Positions 18,477 through 32,000 of a stretch of 32,000 nt of DNA are shown in pieces. Positions within the stretch are counted from its first letter, which is position 1, and each line of letters opens with the position of its first letter. Both the position numbers and the translations under genes were made by a program. Location of the stretch: NCBI GenBank assembly GCA_045654085.1, contig JAZOMT010000032.1:70182-102181 (forward strand), read 5' to 3'. The notes under the pieces were generated by a model. That model did no database searches. It saw only the letters and a list, made by a program, of their open reading frames with translations, and was not told where the DNA came from. The stretch comes from Faecousia sp. (GTDB taxonomy: Bacteria; Bacillota; Clostridia; Oscillospirales; Oscillospiraceae).

Positions 18477-18724
18477 CGCGAGGATGAAAATCAGTATACA
18501 CCCATCCGTTTCTCCAGAGAGCTGCCGGTCGGTGCAAGGCAGTGAAGCTGCGGTGTAGAATTCCTTTCGGAGCGGCTTTGCTGAAATTACAGTAGGCGAA
18601 GACGGGAAAGCCCGATACAGCTTGCGGATCGATTCGATCCCACGAGGCCGCGTATGCGGTAAACTGAGGTGGTACCACAGGAATTTCTTGTCCTCTGCTT
18701 TTGGCAGAGGGCTTTCTATTTATT
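18477..18724 (+). promoter_or_regulatory. T-box leader (tRNA-sensing riboswitch) with terminator/antiterminator. The putative specifier is UUC (Phe).
   Basis: Stem I has a GA/K-turn (CGCGAGGATGA opposite GGAGCG) and AGTA. Helix TACACC (18497-18502) pairs with GGTGTA (18552-18557). The AG bulge is TCCAGAGAG, and the distal loop GGTCGGTGCAA is closed by CTGCC/GGCAG. The specifier-loop 3-prime side is GAA-TTC-C (18558-18564). The T-box sequence is AAACTGAGGTGGTACCACAGG, with the bulge UGGUACC at 18670-18676. The terminator GTCCTCTGC-ttttg-GCAGAGGGC is followed by TTTCTATTT. Confidence 0.8.
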
Positions 18725-18743
18725 CAAACAAAAGGTGATCGCT

Positions 18744-20381
18744 ATGGTAATTACAGACTTTTTGGAACGAAATGCAAGACTTTACGGGCAAGACATTAGT
18801 CTCGTGGAGATCAACCCCTCCGAAGAACGGGACAAAGCCGCCACTTGGTGGGACTTTAACCTGATTGAAAGCGCCAGTCAGGATGCCCCCTACCGTCGGG
18901 AAATGTCCTGGAAAGACTTTGACCGCCGGGCAAACCGCTTTGCAAACCTGCTGCTCAGCCGCGGCTTAAAGCGGGGCACAAAGGTGGCGATTTTGCTTAT
19001 GAACTGTATCGAATGGCTGCCTATTTACTTCGGTATTTTGAAGGCCGGCTGTGTCGCCGTGCCTATGAACTTCCGTTACAGCAGCGACGAAATTCAGTAC
19101 TGCCTGGATTTGGCAGATGTAGAGGTTTTGGTATTTGGACCTGAGTTTATTAGCCGAATGGATGCGGTTGCAGATAGTATCCCCGGTGTAAAAACCCTGT
19201 TCTTCGTAGGTAAAAACGGCCCTCAGTATTCTGAGGACTGTATGTCGCTTCTGCAGTTCTGCTCCTCCAGCGCGCCTCCTGTTGCCCTGTGCGAGACAGA
19301 CGATGCGGCCATCTACTTCTCCTCCGGCACTACCGGCTTTCCGAAGGCCATTTTACATAATCATTTGTCTCTCGTGCACTCCTGCCTGACTGAACAAAAC
19401 CACCACGGACAGAGCCGGGAGGATGTATTCCTCTGCATCCCGCCCCTATACCACACCGGCGCAAAAATGCACTGGTTCGGCTCTCTGCTCTCCGGTTCCA
19501 AGGCCGTGCTGCTGCGGGGTGTAAAACCGGAGTGGATTCTCGGGGCAGTCACCGAGGAGCGCTGCACCATTGTTTGGCTCTTGGTGCCGTGGGCGCAGGA
19601 TCTGCTGGACGCCATTGACGACCACCGTGTTGACCTCTCCAAATTCCGTCTCGATCAGTGGCGGCTGATGCACATCGGCGCCCAGCCCGTACCCCCCAGC
19701 TTAATTCACCGCTGGATGAAGATTTTCCCCCACCACCAGTACGACACCAACTACGGTCTGTCCGAATCCATCGGTCCCGGCTGTGTCCACTTAGGTGTGG
19801 ACAATGTCCATAAAGTTGGCGCCATCGGCAAGCCCGGCTTCGGTTGGGAAACAAAAATTGTGGACGAACACGGTGTTGCGGTAGAAAAGGGCGATGTAGG
19901 CGAGCTGATTGTTCGCGGCGACGGTGTAATGACCTGCTATTATAAAAATCCCGATGCCACCGCAGAGGTACTCCGGGACGGCTGGCTCTTTACCGGCGAT
20001 ATGGCGCGAGAGGACGAGGACGGCTTTATTTACTTAGTAGACCGCAAGAAGGATGTTGTCATCTCCGGCGGTGAGAACCTGTACCCCGTACAAATCGAAG
20101 ATTTCCTGCGCTCCTTCCATAAAATCAAGGACGTGGCGGTTATCGGTCTGCCCGATGCCCGCCTTGGCGAAATTGCTGCAGCCATCATCGAATTGAAAGA
20201 GGGCGAAAGCTGCACCGAAGCAGAAATCGACGAATTCTGCACAGCCCTTCCCCGCTATAAGCGCCCCCGGAAGATCTTCTTTGATAAAGTTCCCCGCAAC
20301 CCCACCGGCAAGATTGAAAAGCCGGTACTGCGTGAAAAGTACTGCCATGGCCGCTTAGTGGAAGTGCAGATCACAGGCTAA
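18744..20381 (+). CDS. AMP-forming acyl-CoA synthetase (ANL superfamily), substrate unknown
   Basis: YFSSGTTGFPKAILHNH (AMP-binding motif), YGLSES, TGDMAREDEDGFIYLVDRKKDVVISGGENLYP and the terminal PRNPTGKIEK. The start MVITDFLERN has AAAGGTGA upstream. Confidence 0.85.
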   Translation: MVITDFLERNARLYGQDISLVEINPSEERDKAATWWDFNLIESASQDAPYRREMSWKDFDRRANRFANLLLSRGLKRGTKVAILLMNCIEWLPIYFGILKAGCVAVPMNFRYSSDEIQYCLDLADVEVLVFGPEFISRMDAVADSIPGVKTLFFVGKNGPQYSEDCMSLLQFCSSSAPPVALCETDDAAIYFSSGTTGFPKAILHNHLSLVHSCLTEQNHHGQSREDVFLCIPPLYHTGAKMHWFGSLLSGSKAVLLRGVKPEWILGAVTEERCTIVWLLVPWAQDLLDAIDDHRVDLSKFRLDQWRLMHIGAQPVPPSLIHRWMKIFPHHQYDTNYGLSESIGPGCVHLGVDNVHKVGAIGKPGFGWETKIVDEHGVAVEKGDVGELIVRGDGVMTCYYKNPDATAEVLRDGWLFTGDMAREDEDGFIYLVDRKKDVVISGGENLYPVQIEDFLRSFHKIKDVAVIGLPDARLGEIAAAIIELKEGESCTEAEIDEFCTALPRYKRPRKIFFDKVPRNPTGKIEKPVLREKYCHGRLVEVQITG

Positions 20382-20405
20382 ACCCCGTATTTTGGAGGAA
20401 TTGAA

Positions 20406-22145
20406 ATGAAAGAGTTAATTTTGGGCAACGAAGCCGTTGCCCGTGGCTTATACGAAGCCGGATGTAGCTTTGTGTCCAGCTATCCCGGCACCCCCAGCAC
20501 AGAAATTACCGAAGCGGTCGCCAAGTATCCTGAGGTCTATGCCGAGTGGGCGCCCAACGAAAAGGTAGCTATGGAAGCCGCCTTTGGCGCATCTTTAGCC
20601 GGTCGTCGGTCTTTTTGCGGTATGAAGCACGTAGGTCTTAACATGGCCGCTGACCCCCTGTTCACCATCTCCTATACCGGTGTCAACGGCGGTATGGTCA
20701 TCGGTGTGGCAGACGATGCGGGCATGCACTCCTCTCAGAACGAACAGGACTCCCGTCATTACGCCCGCGCCGCCAAGATTCCTATGCTGGAGCCTTCTGA
20801 TTCTGCTGAAGCTTTGGCATTTGCCAAGCTGGCCTACGAGCTTTCCGAACAATTCGACACCCCCGTACTTCTTAAAATGTGTACCCGCGTTTCCCACTCT
20901 CAAAGTGTAGTGGAAACCGGTGAACGGGTGGAGTGCGTCAAGGAATATAAGAAGGACATTCCTAAGTATGTTATGATGCCCGGCAACGCAAAGAAGCGCC
21001 ATCCCGTGGTAGAAGCACGGACAAAAGCGCTGATTGCCTATGCTGAGGATGCCGACATCAACCGTGTGGAAGATGGCAATGACCATTCTATCGGCATCAT
21101 CACCTCCTCTACCTCCTACCAGTATGTAAAAGAGGTCTGCGGTGATACTTATCCCGTGCTGAAACTGGGTATGATCTGGCCGCTCCCCGAGGAAAAGATT
21201 CGCAAGTTTGCCGCATCTGTAGACCGTTTGGTGGTCGTGGAAGAGCTGGACGGCTTTATCGAGAGCCATTGCCGGGATTTGGGTCTTTCCTGCACCGGCA
21301 AAGCAGATTTCCCCAACATTGACGAGCTGATGCCCCTGACCGTTGCCGCCAAGCTCTCCGAGACTTGGGAAACCGGTGCAAAGCTCAGTGAAGCCATCCC
21401 CCCCAGACCCCCTGTTATGTGCGCCGGCTGTCCCCACAGAGGTCTGTTCTACACCCTGAAGAAGAATAAAATCACCGTCCTCGGTGGCATCGGCTGCTAT
21501 ACCCTTGGCGCAGTTGCGCCCCTTGCCGCAGTCGACAGCGTGATCTGTATGGGCGCATCCGTCTCCGGCCTCCACGGCTTCTCCAAGTCCCAGCAGGGCG
21601 CCATGGACGGAAATACCGTAGCCGTCATCGGTGACTCCACCTTTATGCACTCCGGCATTACCGGTCTTGTCAATATGGCATACAATGAGTCCAATGCCAC
21701 GGTTATCATCGTGGATAACTCCATCACCGGTATGACCGGTCACCAGCAGAACCCCACCACCGGCTTTAATCTCAAGGGCGACCCCTGCGCCAAGATTGAC
21801 TTGGAGACCCTTTGTAAGGCCGTTGGCATCCGTCGTGTCCGTGTCATTGACCCCTATAATCTTTCTGAGTGCGATGCGGTTATCAAGGAAGAGCTGGCCG
21901 CAAAGGAGCCTTCCGTCATCATCTCCCGCCGTCCCTGCGCGCTATTAAAGTACGTAAAGCACAACAAGCCCCTTTCCGTCGATACAGATAAGTGCGTCGG
22001 CTGCAAGGCCTGTATGAAAATCGGCTGTCCTGCCATCAGCATTGTGGACGGCAAGGCAAAGGTGGACGAAACACTGTGCGTCGGCTGCGGTGTCTGCGAG
22101 CAGCTTTGTAAGTTCGATGCGCTGAGAAGCATCAAGGAGGTCTAA
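20406..22145 (+). CDS. iorA: Indolepyruvate (arylpyruvate):ferredoxin oxidoreductase alpha subunit
   Basis: LILGNEAVARGLYEAGCSFVSSYPGTPSTEI N-terminus, a TPP-binding region GDSTFMHSG, and two C-terminal 4Fe-4S motifs (CVGCKACMKIGCP and CVGCGVCEQLC). Confidence 0.9.
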   Translation: MKELILGNEAVARGLYEAGCSFVSSYPGTPSTEITEAVAKYPEVYAEWAPNEKVAMEAAFGASLAGRRSFCGMKHVGLNMAADPLFTISYTGVNGGMVIGVADDAGMHSSQNEQDSRHYARAAKIPMLEPSDSAEALAFAKLAYELSEQFDTPVLLKMCTRVSHSQSVVETGERVECVKEYKKDIPKYVMMPGNAKKRHPVVEARTKALIAYAEDADINRVEDGNDHSIGIITSSTSYQYVKEVCGDTYPVLKLGMIWPLPEEKIRKFAASVDRLVVVEELDGFIESHCRDLGLSCTGKADFPNIDELMPLTVAAKLSETWETGAKLSEAIPPRPPVMCAGCPHRGLFYTLKKNKITVLGGIGCYTLGAVAPLAAVDSVICMGASVSGLHGFSKSQQGAMDGNTVAVIGDSTFMHSGITGLVNMAYNESNATVIIVDNSITGMTGHQQNPTTGFNLKGDPCAKIDLETLCKAVGIRRVRVIDPYNLSECDAVIKEELAAKEPSVIISRRPCALLKYVKHNKPLSVDTDKCVGCKACMKIGCPAISIVDGKAKVDETLCVGCGVCEQLCKFDALRSIKEV

Positions 22146-22147
22146 GT

Positions 22148-22720
22148 ATGAAAACACAAAATGTTATGATCGTCGGCGTTGGCGGTCAGGGCAGTCTGCT
22201 TGCCTCCAAGCTGCTGGGTCGATTGCTGCTGAGCAAAGGCTATGATATTAAGGTCTCCGAGGTCCACGGTATGAGCCAGCGTGGCGGCAGCGTGGTCACT
22301 TACGTCCGTTTCGGTGACAAGGTCTATTCCCCTGTCATTGACAAGGGGCAGGCTGATTTCATCGTCTCCTTTGAGCTTTTAGAGGCCGCCCGCTGGACGG
22401 AGTACTTAAAGCCCGGTGGAAAGATCATCACGAATACCCAAAAAATCAATCCGATGCCCGTCATCATCGGTGCTGCCGAATATCCCGAAAGCTTGGAAGA
22501 CAAGATGAAAGAAGCCGGTATCGACTTGGACGCGCTGGATGCCTTGACCCTCGCTGAGCAGGCAGGCTCTTCCAAGGCTGTCAACTTGGTCCTGATGGGT
22601 CGTCTTTCCAAGTATTTTGACTTCCCCGAAGAGGAGTGGATGCAGGCCATCGAAGCCAGCGTTCCTCCCAAGTTCTTAGAAATGAACAAAATCGCATTTA
22701 AGCTGGGCGCCAACGCATAA
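22148..22720 (+). CDS. iorB: Indolepyruvate:ferredoxin oxidoreductase beta subunit
   Basis: NVMIVGVGGQGSLLASKLLG...HGMSQRGGSVVTYVRFG, the gamma-domain type of 2-oxoacid oxidoreductases. It starts 2 nt after iorA. Confidence 0.9.
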   Translation: MKTQNVMIVGVGGQGSLLASKLLGRLLLSKGYDIKVSEVHGMSQRGGSVVTYVRFGDKVYSPVIDKGQADFIVSFELLEAARWTEYLKPGGKIITNTQKINPMPVIIGAAEYPESLEDKMKEAGIDLDALDALTLAEQAGSSKAVNLVLMGRLSKYFDFPEEEWMQAIEASVPPKFLEMNKIAFKLGANA

Positions 22721-22734
22721 AGGAGATGGTCACT

Positions 22735-24033
22735 ATGCCCAAGTATTTTCAGCCTGAAATCGAAACCATGCCTTATGACCAGCTTCGGGCGCTCCAAAAT
22801 GAACGCCTCCAAAAGCAGGTGCGCCACGTTTGGGACAATGTTCCCTATTACCGCAAAAAAATGGAGGAAAAAGGCGTTACACCCGAGGATATCCATGGTG
22901 TAGACGACCTTTATAAGCTGCCCTTCCTCTGCAAAGATGACCTGCGGGAGGCCTATCCCTACGGTCTCAAGGGTGCGCCCCTTTCCGACTGTGTCCGCAT
23001 CCACTCCACCTCCGGCACTACCGGTAAGCGGGTGGTTGCCTTCTACACCCAGCACGATATTGACCTGTGGGACGATTGCTGCGCCCGCGCATTGGTCGCC
23101 GCCGGCGCAACCAATGAGGATATTTGTCACATAGCCTACGGCTTCGGTCTTTTCACCGGCGGCGCCGGTCTCAACGGCGGCTCCCATAAGGTAGGCTGCC
23201 TGACGCTGCCTATGTCCTCCGGCAATACCGACCGGCAGCTGCAGTTTATGACAGACCTGGGTTCTACCATTCTCTGCTGCACGCCCTCCTATGCGGCCTA
23301 TCTTGCAGAATCCATCGAGGAGCAAGGTCTCCGTGGTCAGATTAAGCTGAAAGCCGGTATCTTCGGCGCAGAGGCTTGGAGCGAGGATATGCGCCACGAC
23401 ATCGAAAATAAGCTTGGTATTAAAGCATATGATATTTACGGTCTCACCGAGACCTCCGGCCCGGGTGTTGCCTTCGAGTGCAGCGAGCAGACCGGTATGC
23501 ATATCAATGAAGACCACTTTATCGCTGAGATCATCGACCCTGACACAGGCGAGGTGCTGCCCGAAGGCGCTAAGGGCGAGCTGGTATTTACCGCCATCAC
23601 GAAAGAAGCCTTCCCGCTGCTGCGCTACCGCACCCGTGATATTTGCGTACTGACCCGCAAGAAATGCTCCTGCGGCCGCACCCACGTAAAAATGAGCAAG
23701 CCTATGGGTCGCAGTGACGATATGCTGATCATCCGCGGTATCAACGTCTTCCCCTCTCAAATCGAGACAGTTCTTATCCAGCAGGGTTATCCCGCCAATT
23801 ACCAGATTATCGTAGACCGGGTCAACAACTCCGACACCTTTGAGGTTATGGTAGAAATGAATCCCGAGATGTTTTCCGATTCTCTGGCTAAAATTGCCAG
23901 CGCGGAAAAGAAGCTGGTGGAAGCCCTGAAGGCTATGCTGGGCATTGCCGCCAAGGTAAAGCTGGTAGCCCCCAAGTCCATCGCCCGCAGCGAGGGCAAA
24001 GCCGTCCGTGTCATCGACAAGCGTAAACTCTAA
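22735..24033 (+). CDS. paaK: Phenylacetate-CoA ligase family protein (PaaK-like)
   Basis: MPKYFQPEIETMPYDQLRALQNERLQKQVRHVWDNVPYYRKKMEEKGV, IHSTSGTTGKRVV and YGLTETSGPG. The start at 22735 has better spacing from GGAG than 22726. Confidence 0.88.
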   Translation: MPKYFQPEIETMPYDQLRALQNERLQKQVRHVWDNVPYYRKKMEEKGVTPEDIHGVDDLYKLPFLCKDDLREAYPYGLKGAPLSDCVRIHSTSGTTGKRVVAFYTQHDIDLWDDCCARALVAAGATNEDICHIAYGFGLFTGGAGLNGGSHKVGCLTLPMSSGNTDRQLQFMTDLGSTILCCTPSYAAYLAESIEEQGLRGQIKLKAGIFGAEAWSEDMRHDIENKLGIKAYDIYGLTETSGPGVAFECSEQTGMHINEDHFIAEIIDPDTGEVLPEGAKGELVFTAITKEAFPLLRYRTRDICVLTRKKCSCGRTHVKMSKPMGRSDDMLIIRGINVFPSQIETVLIQQGYPANYQIIVDRVNNSDTFEVMVEMNPEMFSDSLAKIASAEKKLVEALKAMLGIAAKVKLVAPKSIARSEGKAVRVIDKRKL

Positions 24034-24045
24034 GGAGGTAACACT

Positions 24046-24477
24046 ATGAGCATTCATCAGATCTCCGTATTTTTGGAAAACCGCACCGGTCAGCTCTCCG
24101 AGATCACCCGTCTCCTTGCAGAAAACCATATTGACATTCGCGCCATCTCCATCGCTGAGACGGCAGACTACGGTCTTGCCCGTATGATTGTGGATGATGC
24201 CCCCAAGGCAAGCAGCATCCTGCTGCAGCACGGTGACATTCTTTCTATGACCCCGGTTTGGGCGGTGGAAGTTCCTGACCGTCCCGCAGGTCTCGCAGAC
24301 CTTTTGGGGGTTCTTGCAGAAAGCCATATCGATGTGGAATATATGTATTCTCTCTTTACCCATCGTGATGGCTGCGCCTATATGGTCCTCCGTGTCTCCG
24401 ATGAGGAAACCTTCGCCGCCGCCCTCTCCGCCCACGGCATCAAGCTTGTCTCCGCCTCCGAACTGGGTCTGAAATAA
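24046..24477 (+). CDS. Stand-alone tandem ACT-domain protein (143 aa)
   Basis: QISVFLENRTGQLSEITRLLAENHIDIRAISIAETADYGLARMIV, and a second repeat AVEVPDRPAGLADLLGVLAESHIDVEYMYS. AAGGAGG lies upstream. Confidence 0.8.
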   Translation: MSIHQISVFLENRTGQLSEITRLLAENHIDIRAISIAETADYGLARMIVDDAPKASSILLQHGDILSMTPVWAVEVPDRPAGLADLLGVLAESHIDVEYMYSLFTHRDGCAYMVLRVSDEETFAAALSAHGIKLVSASELGLK

Positions 24478-24487
24478 CCAACTTACC

Positions 24488-24526
24488 AAAAAAAACACGC
24501 AGTGTAATTTACTGCGTGTTTTTTTC
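24488..24526 (+). terminator. Intrinsic terminator of the T-box operon
   Basis: AAAAAAAACACGCAGT-gtaattt-ACTGCGTGTTTTTTT. Confidence 0.85.
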
Positions 24527-24805: not shown

Positions 24806-26443
24806 TTATGCCTCTGACTTGGCAGCCTTGTCGGTCTTGGGACGGTCGAACAGGTAATTGCCGTCCTCATCCAGCTTCCGATCCAAGAAATGGCAGGCTA
24901 CAAAGTGACCAGGCTCCACTTCCACATAGGGAGGCGGTACGCGCTTACACTTATCGCAAGCCATATAGCAGCGAGTGTGGAACTTGCAGCCTTCCGGAGG
25001 CCGGACAGGGCTGGGAATGTTACCCTCCAGCAGGATACGCTCCTTCTTCAGGGCATTCATATCGGTAGTGGGAATGGAGGACAGCAGCGCCACAGTGTAG
25101 GGATGGCGGGGATCCTCGAAGATAGTTTGTGCATCGCCCAACTCAACCATATTGCCCAAATACATAACGCCAATACGGTCGGAAATATAGCGGACAACGC
25201 TGAGGTCGTGGGAAATGAACAAATAGGTCAGGTTCTCCTTCTCCTTCAGCTCCTCCAACAGATTGATAATCTGAGACTGGATGGAAACATCAAGTGCGGA
25301 AACACATTCGTCACAGACAATAAACTTAGGCTTAACAGCCAGCGCTCTTGCAATACAGATACGCTGCCGCTGACCACCGGAGAATTGGTGGGGATAACGG
25401 TGCAGCATATAGCCCTGCAGACCGCACTGCTCCATAATATCCAGAATATATTCCTTCATTTGGGGGTCACCGGCCTTAAAGAACTTATGGGTGGTGAGAC
25501 CCTCGCCGATGATCTGTCCAACAGTCATACGGGGGTTCAAAGAAGAGTAGGGATCCTGGAAAATGATCTGAATGTCCTTACGGAGAATCCGCATCTCGGT
25601 GTACTTAAGTCTGCTCAGGTCAATGCCGTTGTCCAGCAATTTCTCGTACTCATCGAACCTTGCATCACCGACATGAAGAGCGCGAGCTGCAGCAACAGCC
25701 ACATCAGCTTCCTTCAGAAGCTTCTCCAACTCGTTCTTCTTAGGCAAAAGGGCATTCTTCTTAGCCTCCGCCTTCTTTGCCTTTTCTCGCGCCTTTGCGG
25801 CCTTTTTGGCAGCATTCTTAATAGCCTTATCTGCATCCAGTTCCGCAGCCAACGCGTTTTGGAAGGCGATTTCGCCATCAAAGTCACGGATCTGTTCATT
25901 TAGATCCACCAGCTTTTTACAGATTAGGTAGCGCTTGAGCAGCACTGAGGCGCCTTCTGAGGGATCCTCCAGAGCAGCGAAGCCGCCAAGCACACGGACA
26001 ACATTGCGGAATGCAGTCTCCGCTTCTGCAGCAGACAGGTTCTTTGCCTGATGCTGGAAGAAGGTAGCGCTCTCCCCTGCACCCTCAACGACCTTTGCGG
26101 CAGTCTCTGCCTTCGCAAAAAGCTTCTTGTAGCCAGCAATCATCTTGCGGGCATTTTTCAGGGTGCTTAGCACATACTGAGGGACAAAATCATCTAGCGT
26201 TCGGCCATAGTACATCGTACTACCGGCAGTCTGATCATAAAGCTGCAAAATGGTACGGCCTAAGGTGGACTTACCGCAGCCGGACTCACCAACGAGACCG
26301 AAGGTCTCACCATTGTGGATATCAATGGTGATCTCCTCGTTAGCGCGGACATAGAGCTGCTCCTTCTGGAAGATACTGCTCTTGGGAATGGGGAAATACT
26401 TTTTGAGGTTACTTATTGACAAGAGCTTTTCTGTGTTCTTCAC
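24806..26443 (-). CDS. Opp/Dpp-type ABC ATPase (OppF-like) with a large insertion between Walker A and the Q-loop (545 aa)
   Basis: GESGCGKST Walker A, then about 185 extra residues, then [22 protein letters not shown] ([15 protein letters not shown]), the Walker [12 protein letters not shown] and the C-terminal oligopeptide domain [12 protein letters not shown] chose the GTG start at 26443 (AAGGAGGTG 7 nt upstream). Confidence 0.85.
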
Positions 26444-27422
26444 TGCGGCGCACCTCCTTTTCGGGATAGAAGCAACGGATCTTCTGGCCGGGAACATTCT
26501 CCAGCAGCTCAGGCTCCTTCTCTAAGCATTTTTGTGTTGCATATTTGCATCTGGGCGCGAACTTGCAGCCCTTGGGCAGTGCCAACGGATGGGGCACAAC
26601 ACCGGGGATAGGCTCCAGCTTCTTGCCTACGCTATCGAGCCGGGGGATGGAGTACATCAAGCCCTCGGTGTAGGGATGGCTGTAGGGGCAGTCGGTAAAG
26701 ATCATAGCCGCAGAGGTCTGCTCGACTACCTGACCGCAGTACATAACGACCACATCGTCTGCCATCTCGTTGATAACGCCCAAGTCGTGGGTGATGAAGA
26801 TGATGGATGTGCCGTTATCACGCTGCAGGTCGTTCATCAGTCGCAGAATCTGGGCCTGAATGGTAACATCCAGTGCGGTGGTGGGCTCGTCGGCAATCAA
26901 AATCTTGGGCTTACAAGCCAGCGCCATAGCGATCATAACTCTCTGCCGCATACCGCCGGAGAGCTGGTGGGGATACTGACGGAGCACCGTCTCAGGGTTG
27001 GGAATCTGAACAGCCGCCAGCATTTCCAAAGCCTTCTGCTCCGCTTCCTTCTTGCTCATACCCTGATGGATCATAAAGGGCTCAGAGAGCTGACGCTTTA
27101 CCGTAAAGACCGGGTTTAAGCTGGTCATAGGCTCTTGGAAAATAACGGAGATCTTATTGCCGCGGATCTGGTACAGCTCATCCTGAGAGAGCTTTGTCAG
27201 ATCCTTTCCCTCGAAAATGACCTCACCCTCGTCAATATAGCCATTGCCGTCCAAAAGACGCAGAATACTCATTGCGGAAACGGACTTACCGGAGCCGGAT
27301 TCACCAACAATGCCGATGGTCTTGCCCGGCTCCAAAGAATAAGAGACATCGTTGACCGCTTTAACGATACCCTTACGGGTCTTAAAAAATGTGTGCAGGT
27401 TTTTCACTTCCAGCAAAGCCAT
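26409..27422 (-). CDS. Opp/Dpp-type ABC ATPase (OppD-like), 337 aa
   Basis: [47 protein letters not shown] and GCKFAPRC. Confidence 0.9.
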
Positions 27423-27440: not shown

Positions 27441-29375
27441 TTATTTCTCTTGGCTGCTCTTGGGATCGAGAACATCCCGGAGCGTGTCGCCAATAATATT
27501 AATACTGATGGTTGCAAGGGACAGGAAGATGGCGGGGAATACCCACTGCCACCAGTAGTTCTGAATAACGATGGAGTTGTTGGCACCGTCGAGCATATTG
27601 CCCCAGGTGGGCTGAGGTTGCTGAACACCGAAGCCCAGGTAAGACAGGCTGGATTCCGTCAACAGACAGCCGGCAAAGTCCAAAGTAACGTTAACCAAAA
27701 TGATGGAGATAACATTGGGCAAAATATGCTTAAAGGCGATCCGGGTCTCCTTGATACCCATAGACTGTGCGGCAATAACAAATTCCTTTTCACGCTCGGC
27801 AAGCACCTGGGCGCGGATCATTCTGGCAAGGCCAGTCCAGCTTAAGAGACCCAACATAACCATAATAATGAAGATACGGGTAGTCTCGTCAATGGGCTGG
27901 GTACGAATGACAAAGGAAAGCATCATTGCAAAGGGCAGGAACGGAATGGCAGAGAAGATCTCGGTCACACGCATCAGTAGCATATCCACCCAGCCGCCAA
28001 AGTATCCGGAGATGCAGCCAACGATGATGGCAATAATGGTAGAAACGATAACGGCAACTGCGCCGATGGTCATCGTCATCTTGCCGCCGTGAACAATACG
28101 TGTAAATACGTCACGGCCGCTCTTATCCGTACCCATCAGGTAGCCCTTAAAGCCGGCCTTATCCGTCAGATCGTCATTTTCATCCACAAGATAGGTCTGC
28201 TTTGCACCGACAAAGATGTCATCAGCAGTCTTTCCGGTGAGATCGGTCTGGCCGTGGTCATTGTGACCCCAAGACATAACGGTGCCCTTATCGGTCAGCG
28301 CCACAAAGTGACGTGTGCCAGCCTTAACGGAAACGTACTTCTCTCCCTCGGGCGCAGCAGGTACATCCTTTTCGCCATACTGGGCAGCACCCCAGGCTAT
28401 GATACTGCCATCGCTGAGAACAACTGCATAGCAGTTATTCGTAGCCGCAATATCCACAGCAGTCTTACCCTCCAGGTACGCCTTCAGATTTTTAATCGTA
28501 CCGGTGGCGGAGTTGGTAGCAGAAACCATCTGGAAGGACAGCGTAGAACCGCCGGTAACCGTGCCGTCTTCCATCAGCATCAGCGCATAGTAGTTGGTCA
28601 GCGCCACCTTTTGGACGCCGTCAGAAAACTTTTCCGTGACCTCTGGCAGGCTCAGCATAGCATTTTTGTTGCCCCATGCATAGGTAGTGCCGTCTTTCAT
28701 AACTAGAACCGTACACTGGTAACCGCAAACAAGCTGCTGCACTTGATTGGGGTCAATGGTGCCGTACATCAACTCGTCGGGCATCTGAATGTAAGGATCG
28801 TCGGGACTGGCCAGCATACCGTACTGACCGTTGCCGTTATTGCCCCAGCCGACGACCTTACCGTCGGTAGTAATGGCAATAATATGGTCAGAACCGGCAG
28901 CGGCATGGGCAACCTTACCAGGCTGGATTTCAGCGGGGAAATCCGCATAATTGACACGGCTCAGGTTATCCACGGTATTGCCCCAAATATAGAGCGTATT
29001 GTCATTGCTGACACCCACTGTAAAGCCGCCAAAACCGCTGATATCTCGAATATTGTCTTGGAGTTCACTCGGCACCTTCAGAAATGTGTAGTTAGGCGCA
29101 ATGTTTGCCTGGAGCGGGTCTGTATAGTTCAAGTCCATAGGCCAGATTTCCGGGCCGATGAAAACAAACAGGAACAGGCTTACCAGCAAAACCAAAGCAA
29201 CTACTGCTAATTTGCGGCGGAAGAAAGCCTTAACTGCCATTACAGAGGGGCTCTCAATATTCTCAACAGCAAACCTTTCCTCATCGGTCAACTCCTTGCT
29301 TGCGCCAAAGAACATCCGCTTGCCCCAACGGGCAAGAGTAGAAAACACAGTATTCTTTTTTTCTTTATTCGCCAT
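27441..29375 (-). CDS. OppC/DppC-like ABC permease carrying an RCC1-like repeat ectodomain between TM1 and the conserved core (644 aa)
   Basis: TM1 is LAVVALVLLVSLFLFVFIG. Residues ~105-400 hold repeated motifs LYIWGN, VVGWGNNGNGQYG, TYAWGNKN, IIAWGAAQYGEKDVP and VMSWGHNDHGQTDL. The canonical LMGTDKSGRDVFTRIVHGG and the permease core follow. Confidence 0.85.
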   Translation of the reverse strand: MANKEKKNTVFSTLARWGKRMFFGASKELTDEERFAVENIESPSVMAVKAFFRRKLAVVALVLLVSLFLFVFIGPEIWPMDLNYTDPLQANIAPNYTFLKVPSELQDNIRDISGFGGFTVGVSNDNTLYIWGNTVDNLSRVNYADFPAEIQPGKVAHAAAGSDHIIAITTDGKVVGWGNNGNGQYGMLASPDDPYIQMPDELMYGTIDPNQVQQLVCGYQCTVLVMKDGTTYAWGNKNAMLSLPEVTEKFSDGVQKVALTNYYALMLMEDGTVTGGSTLSFQMVSATNSATGTIKNLKAYLEGKTAVDIAATNNCYAVVLSDGSIIAWGAAQYGEKDVPAAPEGEKYVSVKAGTRHFVALTDKGTVMSWGHNDHGQTDLTGKTADDIFVGAKQTYLVDENDDLTDKAGFKGYLMGTDKSGRDVFTRIVHGGKMTMTIGAVAVIVSTIIAIIVGCISGYFGGWVDMLLMRVTEIFSAIPFLPFAMMLSFVIRTQPIDETTRIFIIMVMLGLLSWTGLARMIRAQVLAEREKEFVIAAQSMGIKETRIAFKHILPNVISIILVNVTLDFAGCLLTESSLSYLGFGVQQPQPTWGNMLDGANNSIVIQNYWWQWVFPAIFLSLATISINIIGDTLRDVLDPKSSQEK

Positions 29376-29390
29376 AAATACTGCCCTCCC

Positions 29391-30422
29391 TTATTTATTG
29401 ACCCGAACACGAGGATCTACCAGGCCGTAAGCCAAGTCGATCAACAGGTTGCCGAAAAGTGCAATGGTAATATAGAACATCTGTAGGGCCAGCACGACCT
29501 CGTTATCGTTGGCCATCAGTGCCGTATTATAGGTACGGCCAATACCGTTGAGTGCAAAAATATTTTCGATCATCAGCGAACCGCTGAAAATGCCCAAGAA
29601 CCAGCCGATAATCAGGGTGGTGATGGGCAGCAGGGCGTTGCGCCATGCGTGGGAGTAGATGACCACTTTTTCCCGCAGGCCCTTCGCCCGGGCAGTGCGG
29701 ATACAGTCCATACTCAGCGCTTCGATCATAGAAGCCCGGACAAAACGGGTCATACCGCCCAGGGAGCAGAAAGTCATAACGATAAGCGGCAGAGCCAAAT
29801 GGTACATTCTGTCCCAGAACTGGGCAGAAGCAGACCATTCCAGCGAGCCTGCGGTCTGCATACCGGAGACCGGGAACCAACCCAAGACAATGGAAAACAG
29901 CCAAATAAAGACGATGGCAATGATAAAGGTCGGAATGCTGTAGCCAATTAGCGTACCGACCTGCACACCCACGTCGCTCTTACTTCCCCGCTTCACGGCG
30001 CAGTAAATTCCAAGGGGAATGGTAATTCCCAGTGCCAGAAAGGTGGCGAAAATATTAATAAAAATGGTGTTCTTCATCGGCTCTACGATAAGTTCAGCTA
30101 CAGGCTTGCCGTGCTGGGTAGACTCACCGAAATTGCCCTGAAGAAGGCCGTTGTAGCCGCCGTCTGATAGCTCCATCACGCCAAGCCAACGTAGGTAGCG
30201 CTCGAACTTGGTACCGTCCGTACCGTAGCGCTTTTGCCAGTACTCATAGCGCTCTTCGTAGTATTCCTTGGGATTAGGACCTTTGTAAGCCTTAGCTTCC
30301 TCGGTTGCTACCTGCGCTGCCTTATCGTTGGGCACCATATTGTAGATCATAAAGATCAAGAACGACAGGATAAAGAAAACAAGCACGATATAAGCAATAC
30401 GCTTTAAGACATACTTGCCCAT
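29391..30422 (-). CDS. OppB/DppB-like ABC permease (343 aa)
   Basis: MGKYVLKRIAYIVLVFFILSFLIF..., the EAA-type loop IRTARAKGLREKVVIYSHAWRNALLP, and LVDPRVR at the C-terminus. AAGGAGG is 7 nt upstream of the ATG at 30422. Confidence 0.88.
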   Translation of the reverse strand: MGKYVLKRIAYIVLVFFILSFLIFMIYNMVPNDKAAQVATEEAKAYKGPNPKEYYEERYEYWQKRYGTDGTKFERYLRWLGVMELSDGGYNGLLQGNFGESTQHGKPVAELIVEPMKNTIFINIFATFLALGITIPLGIYCAVKRGSKSDVGVQVGTLIGYSIPTFIIAIVFIWLFSIVLGWFPVSGMQTAGSLEWSASAQFWDRMYHLALPLIVMTFCSLGGMTRFVRASMIEALSMDCIRTARAKGLREKVVIYSHAWRNALLPITTLIIGWFLGIFSGSLMIENIFALNGIGRTYNTALMANDNEVVLALQMFYITIALFGNLLIDLAYGLVDPRVRVNK

Positions 30423-30516
30423 CAAAATCCCTCCTTTTCCGCCCCGGTGGGGCAAATTTTTCTGTTTGTACACTGTTAAAGGGAAAACGTTATGCTGCTT
30501 CAAACCCTCAGAACTT

Positions 30517-30864: not shown

Positions 30865-32000
30865 TTACTTGTAGTTCTCCATATAGTCAGCAGCGTCACA
30901 GACGAAGCAGACGGAGTAACCAACAGCGATCAGCTCGGGATCGATGGTCCAGTTCCAGCTATAGTCATACATAGCGGAAGTGAAGCCGGTAGCAAAGTTG
31001 ATAGCGTTCAGCTTGGGAACACCATTGTAGCCGTTAGCCTCTCTCCGGTTCAACTCAGCGTATACGCCGGTGGTAAAGTCGGTGGAGATGTACTGAATGT
31101 ACATACCGATCTGGGTAGTAGCAACGGGGTTGGTCTGCCATGCAGTGATCAGCTGATCGGTAACAGTGTTGGGCTGAGTGCCGTACCAGTTGATAGCCAG
31201 AGGCATATAGTACTCACCGTCGATCTTAACGGTCTGGTACTTGCCGTCAACAGTCTTGAACTTCAGGTTATCCTCGGTCTTCTCGTAGCCGGAGAGCTTC
31301 TTGTAACGGACAGCATCCTTGCCAGCCTCAAAAGCTTCGCCCTTATCGTTGTAGATCCAGCCGCCTGCCTCCAGAACCTCGATAGCGGAGTCTGCGGAGT
31401 AATCGTAGGTGTTCAGCTTGATCTCGTCCTTAACAGCCTTGAATGCGGAGTAGCCTTCATAGTAGGGGCCGTGAACAACAGCGCCGTAGCCGCCGGTGAA
31501 GGTCTGAGCAAACTCAGGACGGTTGATGGTGTACATAATAGCCTGACGGACTTCGATCATAGCGGTGGGGCCAAAGTCAGCACGGAAGCCGATCTTACCG
31601 TAACCAGCACGGTCATAGTGGGTCTCAGCGTACTTGCTGGGATCGGACTTGACCAGCTCCAGAGCAGCCTTGGTCTCGTCGCCGCCGGTAACGCCGGCCA
31701 GAACGTCGATCTCGCCGTTCTTGAACATATCGGTCTGGGTCTCTTCAACCATCTTAATATAGGTGATGGTCTTGATGGAAGCCTTGCCGCGAGCAGTGTC
31801 GCCGGGGTAGTTGGGGTTCAGCTCCAAAGTAGCAACTTTAGTAGACTCGTTGTAATCCTTAACAATGTAGGGACCGGAGTAAGGCAGGGAAGAGTTCCAT
31901 TTCAGGTTGGCCTTGATAACCTCGACCATAGTGTAGACGTCAGCGCCGTCCTTCTTGGTCTTAGCGTAGAAGCCGTCGGACAGGCCAACGGAGCCGTCTG
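30865..32000 (-). CDS. ABC substrate-binding protein, family 5 (OppA/DppA-like). The N-terminus lies beyond the right edge.
   Basis: The track ORF starts at an internal Met. The same frame stays open upstream to position 32000 (...DGSVGLSDGFYAKTKKDGADVYTMVEV...). Composition and length are typical of SBP_bac_5. Confidence 0.8.
   Translation of the reverse strand, partial: DGSVGLSDGFYAKTKKDGADVYTMVEVIKANLKWNSSLPYSGPYIVKDYNESTKVATLELNPNYPGDTARGKASIKTITYIKMVEETQTDMFKNGEIDVLAGVTGGDETKAALELVKSDPSKYAETHYDRAGYGKIGFRADFGPTAMIEVRQAIMYTINRPEFAQTFTGGYGAVVHGPYYEGYSAFKAVKDEIKLNTYDYSADSAIEVLEAGGWIYNDKGEAFEAGKDAVRYKKLSGYEKTEDNLKFKTVDGKYQTVKIDGEYYMPLAINWYGTQPNTVTDQLITAWQTNPVATTQIGMYIQYISTDFTTGVYAELNRREANGYNGVPKLNAINFATGFTSAMYDYSWNWTIDPELIAVGYSVCFVCDAADYMENYK

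Follow-up and report, generated by a model that had tools for sequence, protein, structure and literature searches.

Opp/Dpp importers are a main nitrogen and amino-acid supply route for peptide-fermenting gut anaerobes, and the known systems nearest to the one described here are the E. coli OppBCDF (8z21), E. coli DppABCDF (8z1v/8z1y), and M. tuberculosis OppABCD (8j5q) complexes, hereafter the references. The OppC/DppC permease of these systems combines OppC_N and BPD_transp_1 domains with six transmembrane (TM) helices, an EAA loop, and a GTDxxGRD motif, and it is accompanied in the operon by OppB, the two oligo_HPY ATPases OppD and OppF, and a family-5 substrate-binding protein (SBP). Its TM1-TM2 loop measures about 25-45 amino acids (aa) in the reference OppC/DppC proteins, and current Opp/Dpp structural models rest on such short OppC loops. 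Here, we analyzed a 32,000-nucleotide (nt) stretch of Faecousia sp. DNA (assembly GCA_045654085.1, contig JAZOMT010000032.1, positions 70,182 to 102,181; hereafter the window), which carries an operon with all of these features and an OppC-type permease gene (27441..29375, minus strand) whose TM1-TM2 loop instead holds a predicted RCC1-like beta-propeller of approximately 310 aa.

Accessory ectodomains on ATP-binding cassette (ABC) importers have precedents. Substrate-binding domains are fused to the transmembrane domain (TMD) in GlnPQ and OpuA of Gram-positive bacteria; the fused domain of these transporters has the SBP fold and replaces the free SBP, whereas the propeller is always encoded together with a separate SBP. 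In the E. coli maltose importer, which is of type I, one loop of the TMD likewise contains a folded extracytoplasmic domain, MalF P2, near the SBP docking site, where it binds MalE with a dissociation constant of 7-22 uM and remains bound through the cycle. It differs in its location (the TM3-TM4 loop), in its Ig-like fold of about 185 aa, and in the transporter family to which it belongs, and a likeness in function between MalF P2 and the propeller is offered as an analogy. The maltose system is the only one to provide a well-studied example of a component acting in the handover from SBP to translocator, and a conserved folded ectodomain on the Opp translocator would add such a component.

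With regard to fold, BLIP-II of Streptomyces is a seven-bladed propeller. This compact secreted bacterial RCC1-like protein of about 270 aa (1jtd, 3qhy, and 3qi0) acts purely as a protein-binding surface, and it differs from the insert in being free and soluble, in targeting a beta-lactamase, and in being unconnected with any transporter. Members of this repeat family with the fold of the insert also include eukaryotic RCC1, UVR8, HERC1/2, and RPGR, which differ from the insert as cytosolic or nuclear proteins engaged in Ran exchange, UV-B sensing, and ubiquitin ligation, and ACR4 CRINKLY (7a0j), where an RCC1-like propeller serves as the ectodomain of a membrane protein. None of the compared eukaryotic domains sits inside a polytopic transporter. 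Full-text literature searches turned up no account of Opp-type permeases with an RCC1 or propeller insert, which agrees with the first-pass annotation of the window, whose author knew of no functional account of such a fusion; the searched databases label the fusion protein only as a generic permease subunit. The architecture is real and widespread, and we did not find it described. Surface proteins of Bacillota contain many RCC1-like propellers, nearly all of them uncharacterized; a function in the importer would give such domains a role, and the transporter setting offers a defined set of partners and an assayable output (uptake, ATPase).

The OppC-type permease and its insert

The permease gene is a single uninterrupted open reading frame (ORF) of 644 codons, and its closest relative (P0001, 96% identical) is a protein from a Ruminococcaceae metagenome-assembled genome (MAG) that bears the name 'ABC transporter permease subunit'. 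The first-pass annotation, made from the letters of the window without database searches, had called the permease OppC-type and about twice the normal length, and both statements are borne out: E. coli OppC has 302 aa, and the NCBIfam OppC-type profiles, with 278-328 positions, align only from permease aa 400-413 onward. The gene and the elements that frame the insert are as follows.

27441..29375, minus strand: gene of the 644-aa OppC-type permease with inserted propeller (Pfam OppC_N, RCC1_2, BPD_transp_1)
29094..29252, minus strand: OppC_N region, aa 42-94 (PF12911, 37.8 bits, cutoff 23.9)
29154-29210, minus strand: TM1, aa 56-74, with LAVVALVLLVSLFLFVFIG at aa 56 (hydropathy)
28104..28139, minus strand: conserved OppC motif ahead of TM2, LMGTDKSGRDVF, aa 413-424 (alignments A2 and A4)
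27459..28031, minus strand: BPD_transp_1 core, TM2-TM6, aa 449-639 (PF00528, 110.5 bits)
27726-27812, minus strand: EAA coupling loop, aa 522-550 (motif position after TM4)

The OppC_N region consists of an amphipathic cytoplasmic segment, TM1, and a stalk, GPxxxPxDxxYxDxxQxNxxP, that is conserved across the 29 diverse fusions of alignment A2, on which the conservation analysis was based. In the motif ahead of TM2, residues G415, D417, and G420 are invariant in the same alignment, and G415, D417, G420, and R421 are invariant in a five-sequence alignment (A4) that includes plain OppC. Hydropathy places five hydrophobic segments after the insert (aa 431-469, 472-492, 499-521, 551-575, and 610-631), and a PDB sequence search aligns E. 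coli OppC residues 80-301 to permease aa 410-640, with E. coli OppC, E. coli DppC, and M. tuberculosis OppC as the best matches of the permease part. The protein thus belongs with the OppC/DppC permeases and serves as OppC in an ABC importer of the peptide/nickel family that is encoded by five genes. No NCBIfam equivalog cutoff is reached by the permease (best Opp4C, 307.9 bits against 350, with the remaining profiles further below), and the substrate of the importer is therefore not assignable to any of the named classes (oligopeptide, dipeptide, nickel, or opine).

Alignment with a plain 302-aa OppC (L083) opens one clean gap, from the end of TM1 to the segment just ahead of GTDxxGRD, which delimits an insert of about 320 residues at approximately aa 76-410. 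This agrees with the first-pass description of some 300 aa between TM1 and an LMGTDxxGRD-type motif; the interval given there, 28176-29063 (aa 105-400), does lie within the insert, whose full extent is slightly larger, roughly 28146..29150.

Predicted fold of the insert

RCC1 repeats, which Pfam places at about aa 102-400, are present in the insert far beyond chance. The profile check proposed with the first-pass annotation gave RCC1_2 at 101.4 bits (E=1.6e-29, cutoff 22) and RCC1 at 28.7 bits (cutoff 21.7). WD40_RLD was matched with E=8e-37, and the insert fails this full-length model of the eukaryotic RCC1-like domain, scoring 127.8 bits against the model's own whole-domain cutoff of 150; its blades are shorter and BLIP-II-like. 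No SBP family was detected in the insert by the Pfam scan. The WG-type repeat motifs LYIWGN (aa 128), VVGWGNNGNGQYG (aa 174), TYAWGNKN (aa 231), IIAWGAAQYGEKDVP (aa 325), and VMSWGHNDHGQTDL (aa 366) were all located in the translation, as were the TM1 and pre-TM2 motifs that had been quoted with them.

Structure prediction with AlphaFold2 (AF2), using a 46-sequence alignment, gave a predicted local distance difference test score (pLDDT) of about 90 over aa 100-410 and seven groups of beta strands, each closed by a WG-type motif. The five to seven repeats of the first-pass annotation are thereby resolved as seven predicted blades of about 44 aa each, listed below.

28974..29063, minus strand: blade 1, aa 105-134, ends LYIWGN (AF2 strands E109-114, E118-123, E128-132)
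28836..28973, minus strand: blade 2, aa 135-180, AAGSDHIIAITTDGKVVGWGNN (best RCC1_2 match aa 156-184; AF2 strands E155-177)
28665..28835, minus strand: blade 3, aa 181-237, ends TYAWGNK (AF2 strands E212-236; RCC1 match aa 171-225)
28545..28664, minus strand: blade 4, aa 238-277, degenerate, ends GTVTGG (AF2 strands E254-275)
28383..28544, minus strand: blade 5, aa 278-331, ends IIAWGAA (AF2 strands E306-329)
28260..28382, minus strand: blade 6, aa 332-372, AGTRHFVALTDKGTVMSWGHN (AF2 strands E347-370)
28143..28259, minus strand: blade 7, aa 373-411, ends (W)G-x-K-G-Y (AF2 strands E386-408)

Degenerate blade 4 keeps LxxDGTV across the family, and the blade 6 stretch matches HERC2 and BLIP-II in the PDB by sequence. 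The first and last blades are adjacent in a propeller ring, so a domain of this kind fits into a loop while leaving the permease undisturbed. Blade 7 joins the OppC core without a linker, with a family consensus of WGLKGYLxGTD at the junction, and the junction is therefore rigid and the propeller firmly held on the outer face of OppC.

Foldseek against the PDB returned UVR8, BLIP-II, RPGR, HERC2, and RCC1 for the insert with a probability of 1.00, and the plant ACR4 CRINKLY ectodomain (7a0j) at rank 40. BLIP-II is the best size-matched fold match (TM-score 0.75 on the target, 23% identity) and is also recovered by sequence (E=6e-15). Outside the insert, the matches of the model are DppC/OppC chains of the E. 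coli and M. tuberculosis complexes, at 34-35% identity, and the low confidence of the membrane domain in the model probably reflects the shallow alignment. A propeller fold, as the first-pass annotation had predicted, was thus found by both profile and structure searches, and it is close to certain from the predicted model that the insert folds compactly into an RCC1-like beta-propeller with seven blades and about 310 aa.

Outward-facing position and putative docking of the binding protein

The N-terminal 55 residues of the permease carry 12 K/R and 7 D/E, and the insert loop 24 K/R and 42 D/E. The EAA-type coupling segment comes after the third of the five hydrophobic segments that trail the insert, and in the E. 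coli DppBCDF structure the coupling helix joins TM4 and TM5 in the cytoplasm, with the TM1-TM2 regions periplasmic. Since three TM segments separate the insert from a cytoplasmic EAA loop, the insert is predicted to lie outside the cell, and on the strength of sequence and homologous structures it is close to certain that the propeller occupies the TM1-TM2 loop and faces outward, as had been proposed from the N-in topology of OppC/DppC proteins. A guanine-nucleotide exchange activity of the Ran type is implausible for an extracytoplasmic bacterial propeller.

DppA caps DppB and DppC in E. coli DppABCDF, and the periplasmic TM1-TM2 region of DppB forms a scoop motif that enters the SBP cleft and has been proposed to seal the cavity. 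Because the SBP caps this pair of subunits and the DppB TM1-TM2 region reaches its cleft, the propeller would, judging from homologous structures, stand beside the SBP docking site. The equivalent-loop position beside the SBP and the precedent of MalF P2 lead us to favor, tentatively, a role of the propeller as a protein-protein docking or retention platform for the SBP of the operon. From its fixed place next to the docked SBP, the propeller would recruit, orient, or retain this unusually large lipoprotein during the transport cycle, as MalF P2 does for MalE. In support of docking, a long lipoprotein SBP is encoded at every locus with enough upstream sequence, which extends to the family the first-pass observation of a separate family-5 binding protein.

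Further indications come from the pattern of conservation. Mean pairwise identity among the 29 diverse members is 27% in the propeller vs 50% in the membrane domain, and the propeller keeps its seven blades despite a rate of divergence roughly double that of the TMD. The only propeller positions conserved family-wide are G, W, H, and P residues of the repeat framework, and the fold therefore appears to be under selection while the surface changes fast. A conserved ligand site in the propeller was rejected on these grounds, and a co-evolving protein partner accordingly fits better than a fixed small-ligand site.

Several observations weigh against docking of the SBP. A mirror-tree test that compared the distance matrices of propeller and SBP across 55 loci gave a partial r of 0.44, which none of 500 permutations reached; in a control with the fastest 120 OppB columns, those columns correlated with the propeller at 0.46 and the SBP term dropped to 0.18, and the apparent co-evolution signal was rejected as a rate-class artifact. 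Both the length of the SBP and its circular permutation (described below) vary among loci independently of the propeller. Moreover, lipid-anchored SBPs may need no extra docking site in monoderms, and, the TMD model being of low confidence, homologous structures are the source for how the propeller would be oriented toward the SBP site. Finally, there are fusion variants in which the propeller is interrupted by 150-500 extra residues (P0141, 864 aa; P0144, 876 aa; P0156, 773 aa; P0160, 1142 aa; and P0162, 1072 aa). These nested extensions, which are coiled-coil-like stretches, repeated modules, or extra RCC1 repeats, enlarge the ectodomain and hint that its partner may be something else than the SBP.

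The same extensions suggest that the propeller of some members reaches away from the membrane, and they are thus compatible with a module on the substrate side, in which polypeptides or larger peptides would be bound by the propeller, or a protease of the cell envelope recruited to it, and the products of proteolysis, set free close to the transporter, would pass to the SBP. We regard this explanation as unlikely. It draws on the fact that propellers of this kind bind proteins and peptides, with BLIP-II and HERC2 RLD2 in complex with a DXDKDED peptide among the fold matches. Six of the best-scoring non-permease matches were scanned; each is a large protein of several domains, which apart from the RCC1 repeats are of extracellular or surface type, and P0244 among them is a subtilase S8 peptidase with RCC1 repeats. 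On the other hand, no surface residues are conserved family-wide to mark a shared peptide site, and a dedicated SBP is always encoded. A rather less likely version, which goes back to the built-in receptor considered in the first-pass annotation, would make the propeller a second receptor of the importer that captures polypeptides, or docks a surface protease or other surface protein, at the mouth of the transporter. If true, the Opp system would couple extracellular protein breakdown or partner recognition directly to uptake.

Operon and genomic neighborhood

The gene order SBP-OppB-OppC-OppD-OppF is kept at every locus with enough flanking sequence. In the window, the partners of the permease and the neighboring cluster are as follows.

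30865..32000, minus strand: last 377 codons of a family-5 substrate-binding lipoprotein gene, frame open to the window edge (PF00496)
29391..30503, minus strand: OppB-type permease (BPD_transp_1, BPD_transp_1_N)
26409..27422, minus strand: OppD-type ATPase, 337 aa (ABC_tran and oligo_HPY)
24806..26497, minus strand: OppF-type ATPase, up to 563 aa (ABC_tran in two stretches and oligo_HPY)
18669-24477, plus strand: gene cluster converging on the opp operon

The probable start of OppB is M28 (nt 30422), where the alignment of NCBIfam Opp4B also begins (aa 28). Complete SBPs of the fusion loci measure 597-815 aa when counted from the first in-frame start, so that some lengths are slightly overestimated. 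A homolog search with the SBP fragment of the window returned mostly truncated proteins. The 81%-identical relative has a full-length lipoprotein SBP of 740 aa with a lipobox. The SBP of the operon (window 30865-32000, minus strand; L001:6488-8710) looks circularly permuted: a segment with WWKLYIQRWNYLVPEVPLYSNQYFDLYNAKIENF lies at aa 85-165, directly after the lipobox, and is C-terminal in canonical SBPs, where it aligns to residues 505-558 of the OppA in PDB 9p48_A. The segment is N-terminal in approximately 25 related loci (the clade of the window) and C-terminal in approximately 40, and its placement is not tied to the propeller.

The OppF-type ATPase is itself enlarged by a helical insert of about 190 aa (around aa 100-290), which follows the Walker A strand within the ABC domain, is rich in lysine, alanine, and glutamate, and gives a weak SMC_N-like match in Pfam. 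NCBIfam OppF aligns at aa 290-537, and the NCBIfam profile for Mycoplasma OppF is also long (649 positions). Of 66 loci with the propeller OppC, 58 encode a long OppF and the remaining 8 an OppF of normal length. The partner of DppC in the solved Dpp structure is DppF, and the OppC and OppF inserts would therefore belong to the same half of the transporter.

This pairing, with inserts on both sides of the membrane, raises the question of a structural or regulatory lid without any external partner, which would shield the outward cavity or couple to the modified OppF across the membrane. The rigid junction to the pre-TM2 segment and the sealing function proposed for the DppB scoop motif are in keeping with such a lid. 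Against it, the 8 loci with normal-length OppF indicate that the two inserts are separable, 310 aa is large for a lid, and OppB retains a long TM1-TM2 region of its own; we hold the lid to be highly improbable. Should the propeller instead prove to be the second receptor mentioned above, its combination with the OppF helical insert would set these gut-anaerobe systems apart as a subclass of their own among peptide importers.

Beyond the five operon members, no gene is consistently linked to the fusion: 439 flanking ORFs were clustered, and none of the clusters occurs in more than 7 of approximately 77 loci. The commonest outside neighbor, found in 7 of these loci (e.g., L038:8777-10579), is an M3 oligoendopeptidase-F-like gene with a HEAGH motif, a neighbor that would suit a substrate-side module recruiting a protease, while the lack of consistent linkage of a protease gene counts against that explanation. 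The cluster converging on the operon in the window encodes an AMP-binding acyl-CoA synthetase (570 aa), a phenylacetate-CoA-ligase-like enzyme (435 aa), a two-subunit 2-oxoacid:ferredoxin oxidoreductase of the indolepyruvate type (579 and 190 aa), and an ACT-pair protein (143 aa), a composition consistent with aromatic or branched-chain amino-acid fermentation. At L001, the operon is neighbored by a 2-oxoacid:ferredoxin oxidoreductase set and a Glu/Leu/Phe/Val dehydrogenase. Going by their gene content, the neighbors at both loci fit peptide use by an amino-acid fermenter, and the adjacency of amino-acid catabolism genes also agrees with a module on the substrate side. A 724-aa ORF (22324-24498, minus strand) that lies antisense to the ligase-like and ACT genes is of odd, G/A/H-rich composition and almost certainly not a gene.

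Distribution of the fusion

The fusion architecture recurs in more than 120 clusters built at 90% identity. The best 120 matches at this level have 632-658 aa, 98-100% query coverage, and the same Pfam set, and those with names are again 'ABC transporter permease subunit' proteins from Ruminococcaceae and Lachnospiraceae MAGs; from a library at 50% identity, about 28 of the representatives listed align end to end with identities down to 30%. The survey of spread suggested with the first-pass annotation was carried out on GTDB with one genome per species and a 13-sequence alignment as the query, and among the best 80 loci, 78 carry the fusion, which is therefore present in at least 78 GTDB species, mostly Bacillota. 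Carriers include Oscillospiraceae, Faecousia, Candidatus Scatosoma, Lachnospiraceae, Christensenellales, Erysipelotrichaceae, Peptostreptococcales, Tissierellaceae, and Anaerococcus. Sellimonas intestinalis BR72, Wansuia hejianensis NSJ-26, and Anaerococcus sp. Marseille-P9784 are cultured, which makes the function of the propeller directly testable.

An assembly error, chimeric contig, or misread frame has a negligible chance of explaining the fusion and was rejected, as the gene is a single ORF and independent assemblies by the hundred, cultured isolates among the sources, show the same architecture. All members have in common the insertion point, the stalk that follows TM1, and the WGLKGYLxGTD junction, which suggests that the fusion may have arisen once and then spread.

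Four MAGs labeled Sphaerochaeta or Treponema (L059, L060, L061, and L063) also contain the fusion operon, at about 39-42% identity; with the labels as given, these loci suggest that diderm Spirochaetota acquired it from Bacillota. Provided that the MAGs are correctly binned, the domain would be periplasmic in these carriers, which argues against a partner outside the envelope, and periplasmic peptidoglycan may still be compatible as a partner. This bears on the cell-wall or glycan anchor that the first-pass annotation had listed among the possibilities, in which the propeller would bind peptidoglycan, wall polymers, or an S-layer component and thereby position the transporter or sample wall peptides. 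The domain faces the wall in monoderms, peptidoglycan lies within its reach in the Sphaerochaeta/Treponema periplasm, and the RCC1 repeats of the scanned proteins accompany modules typical of proteins at the surface or in association with the wall (NPCBM, Ig, Calx-beta, and InlB-type). However, Pfam detected no known wall-binding domain (SLH, LysM, CW_binding, or SH3b), the rigid membrane-proximal joint and a height of about 3-4 nm (estimated from propellers of this kind) leave little reach, and the surface is fast-diverging and net acidic in nearly all members. Wall contact is accordingly judged quite improbable, and docking of the SBP remains our tentative preference.

Two loci of the survey deserve separate mention. 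Locus L021 is labeled Bacteroidaceae and may be mis-binned, and in Subdoligranulum sp. APC924/74 (L067:8917-10994) the propeller OppC is split into two ORFs of 383 and 331 aa by a frameshift, as a pseudogene, or through a sequencing error. Other OppC proteins of Bacillota carry TM1-TM2 inserts of 200-400 aa without a Pfam match (P0249, P0254, P0255, P0263, P0264, and P0266), as do the OppC proteins of about 523 aa at L081 and L082, and from these sequences the TM1-TM2 loop of OppC seems to be a recurrent site of ectodomain insertion.

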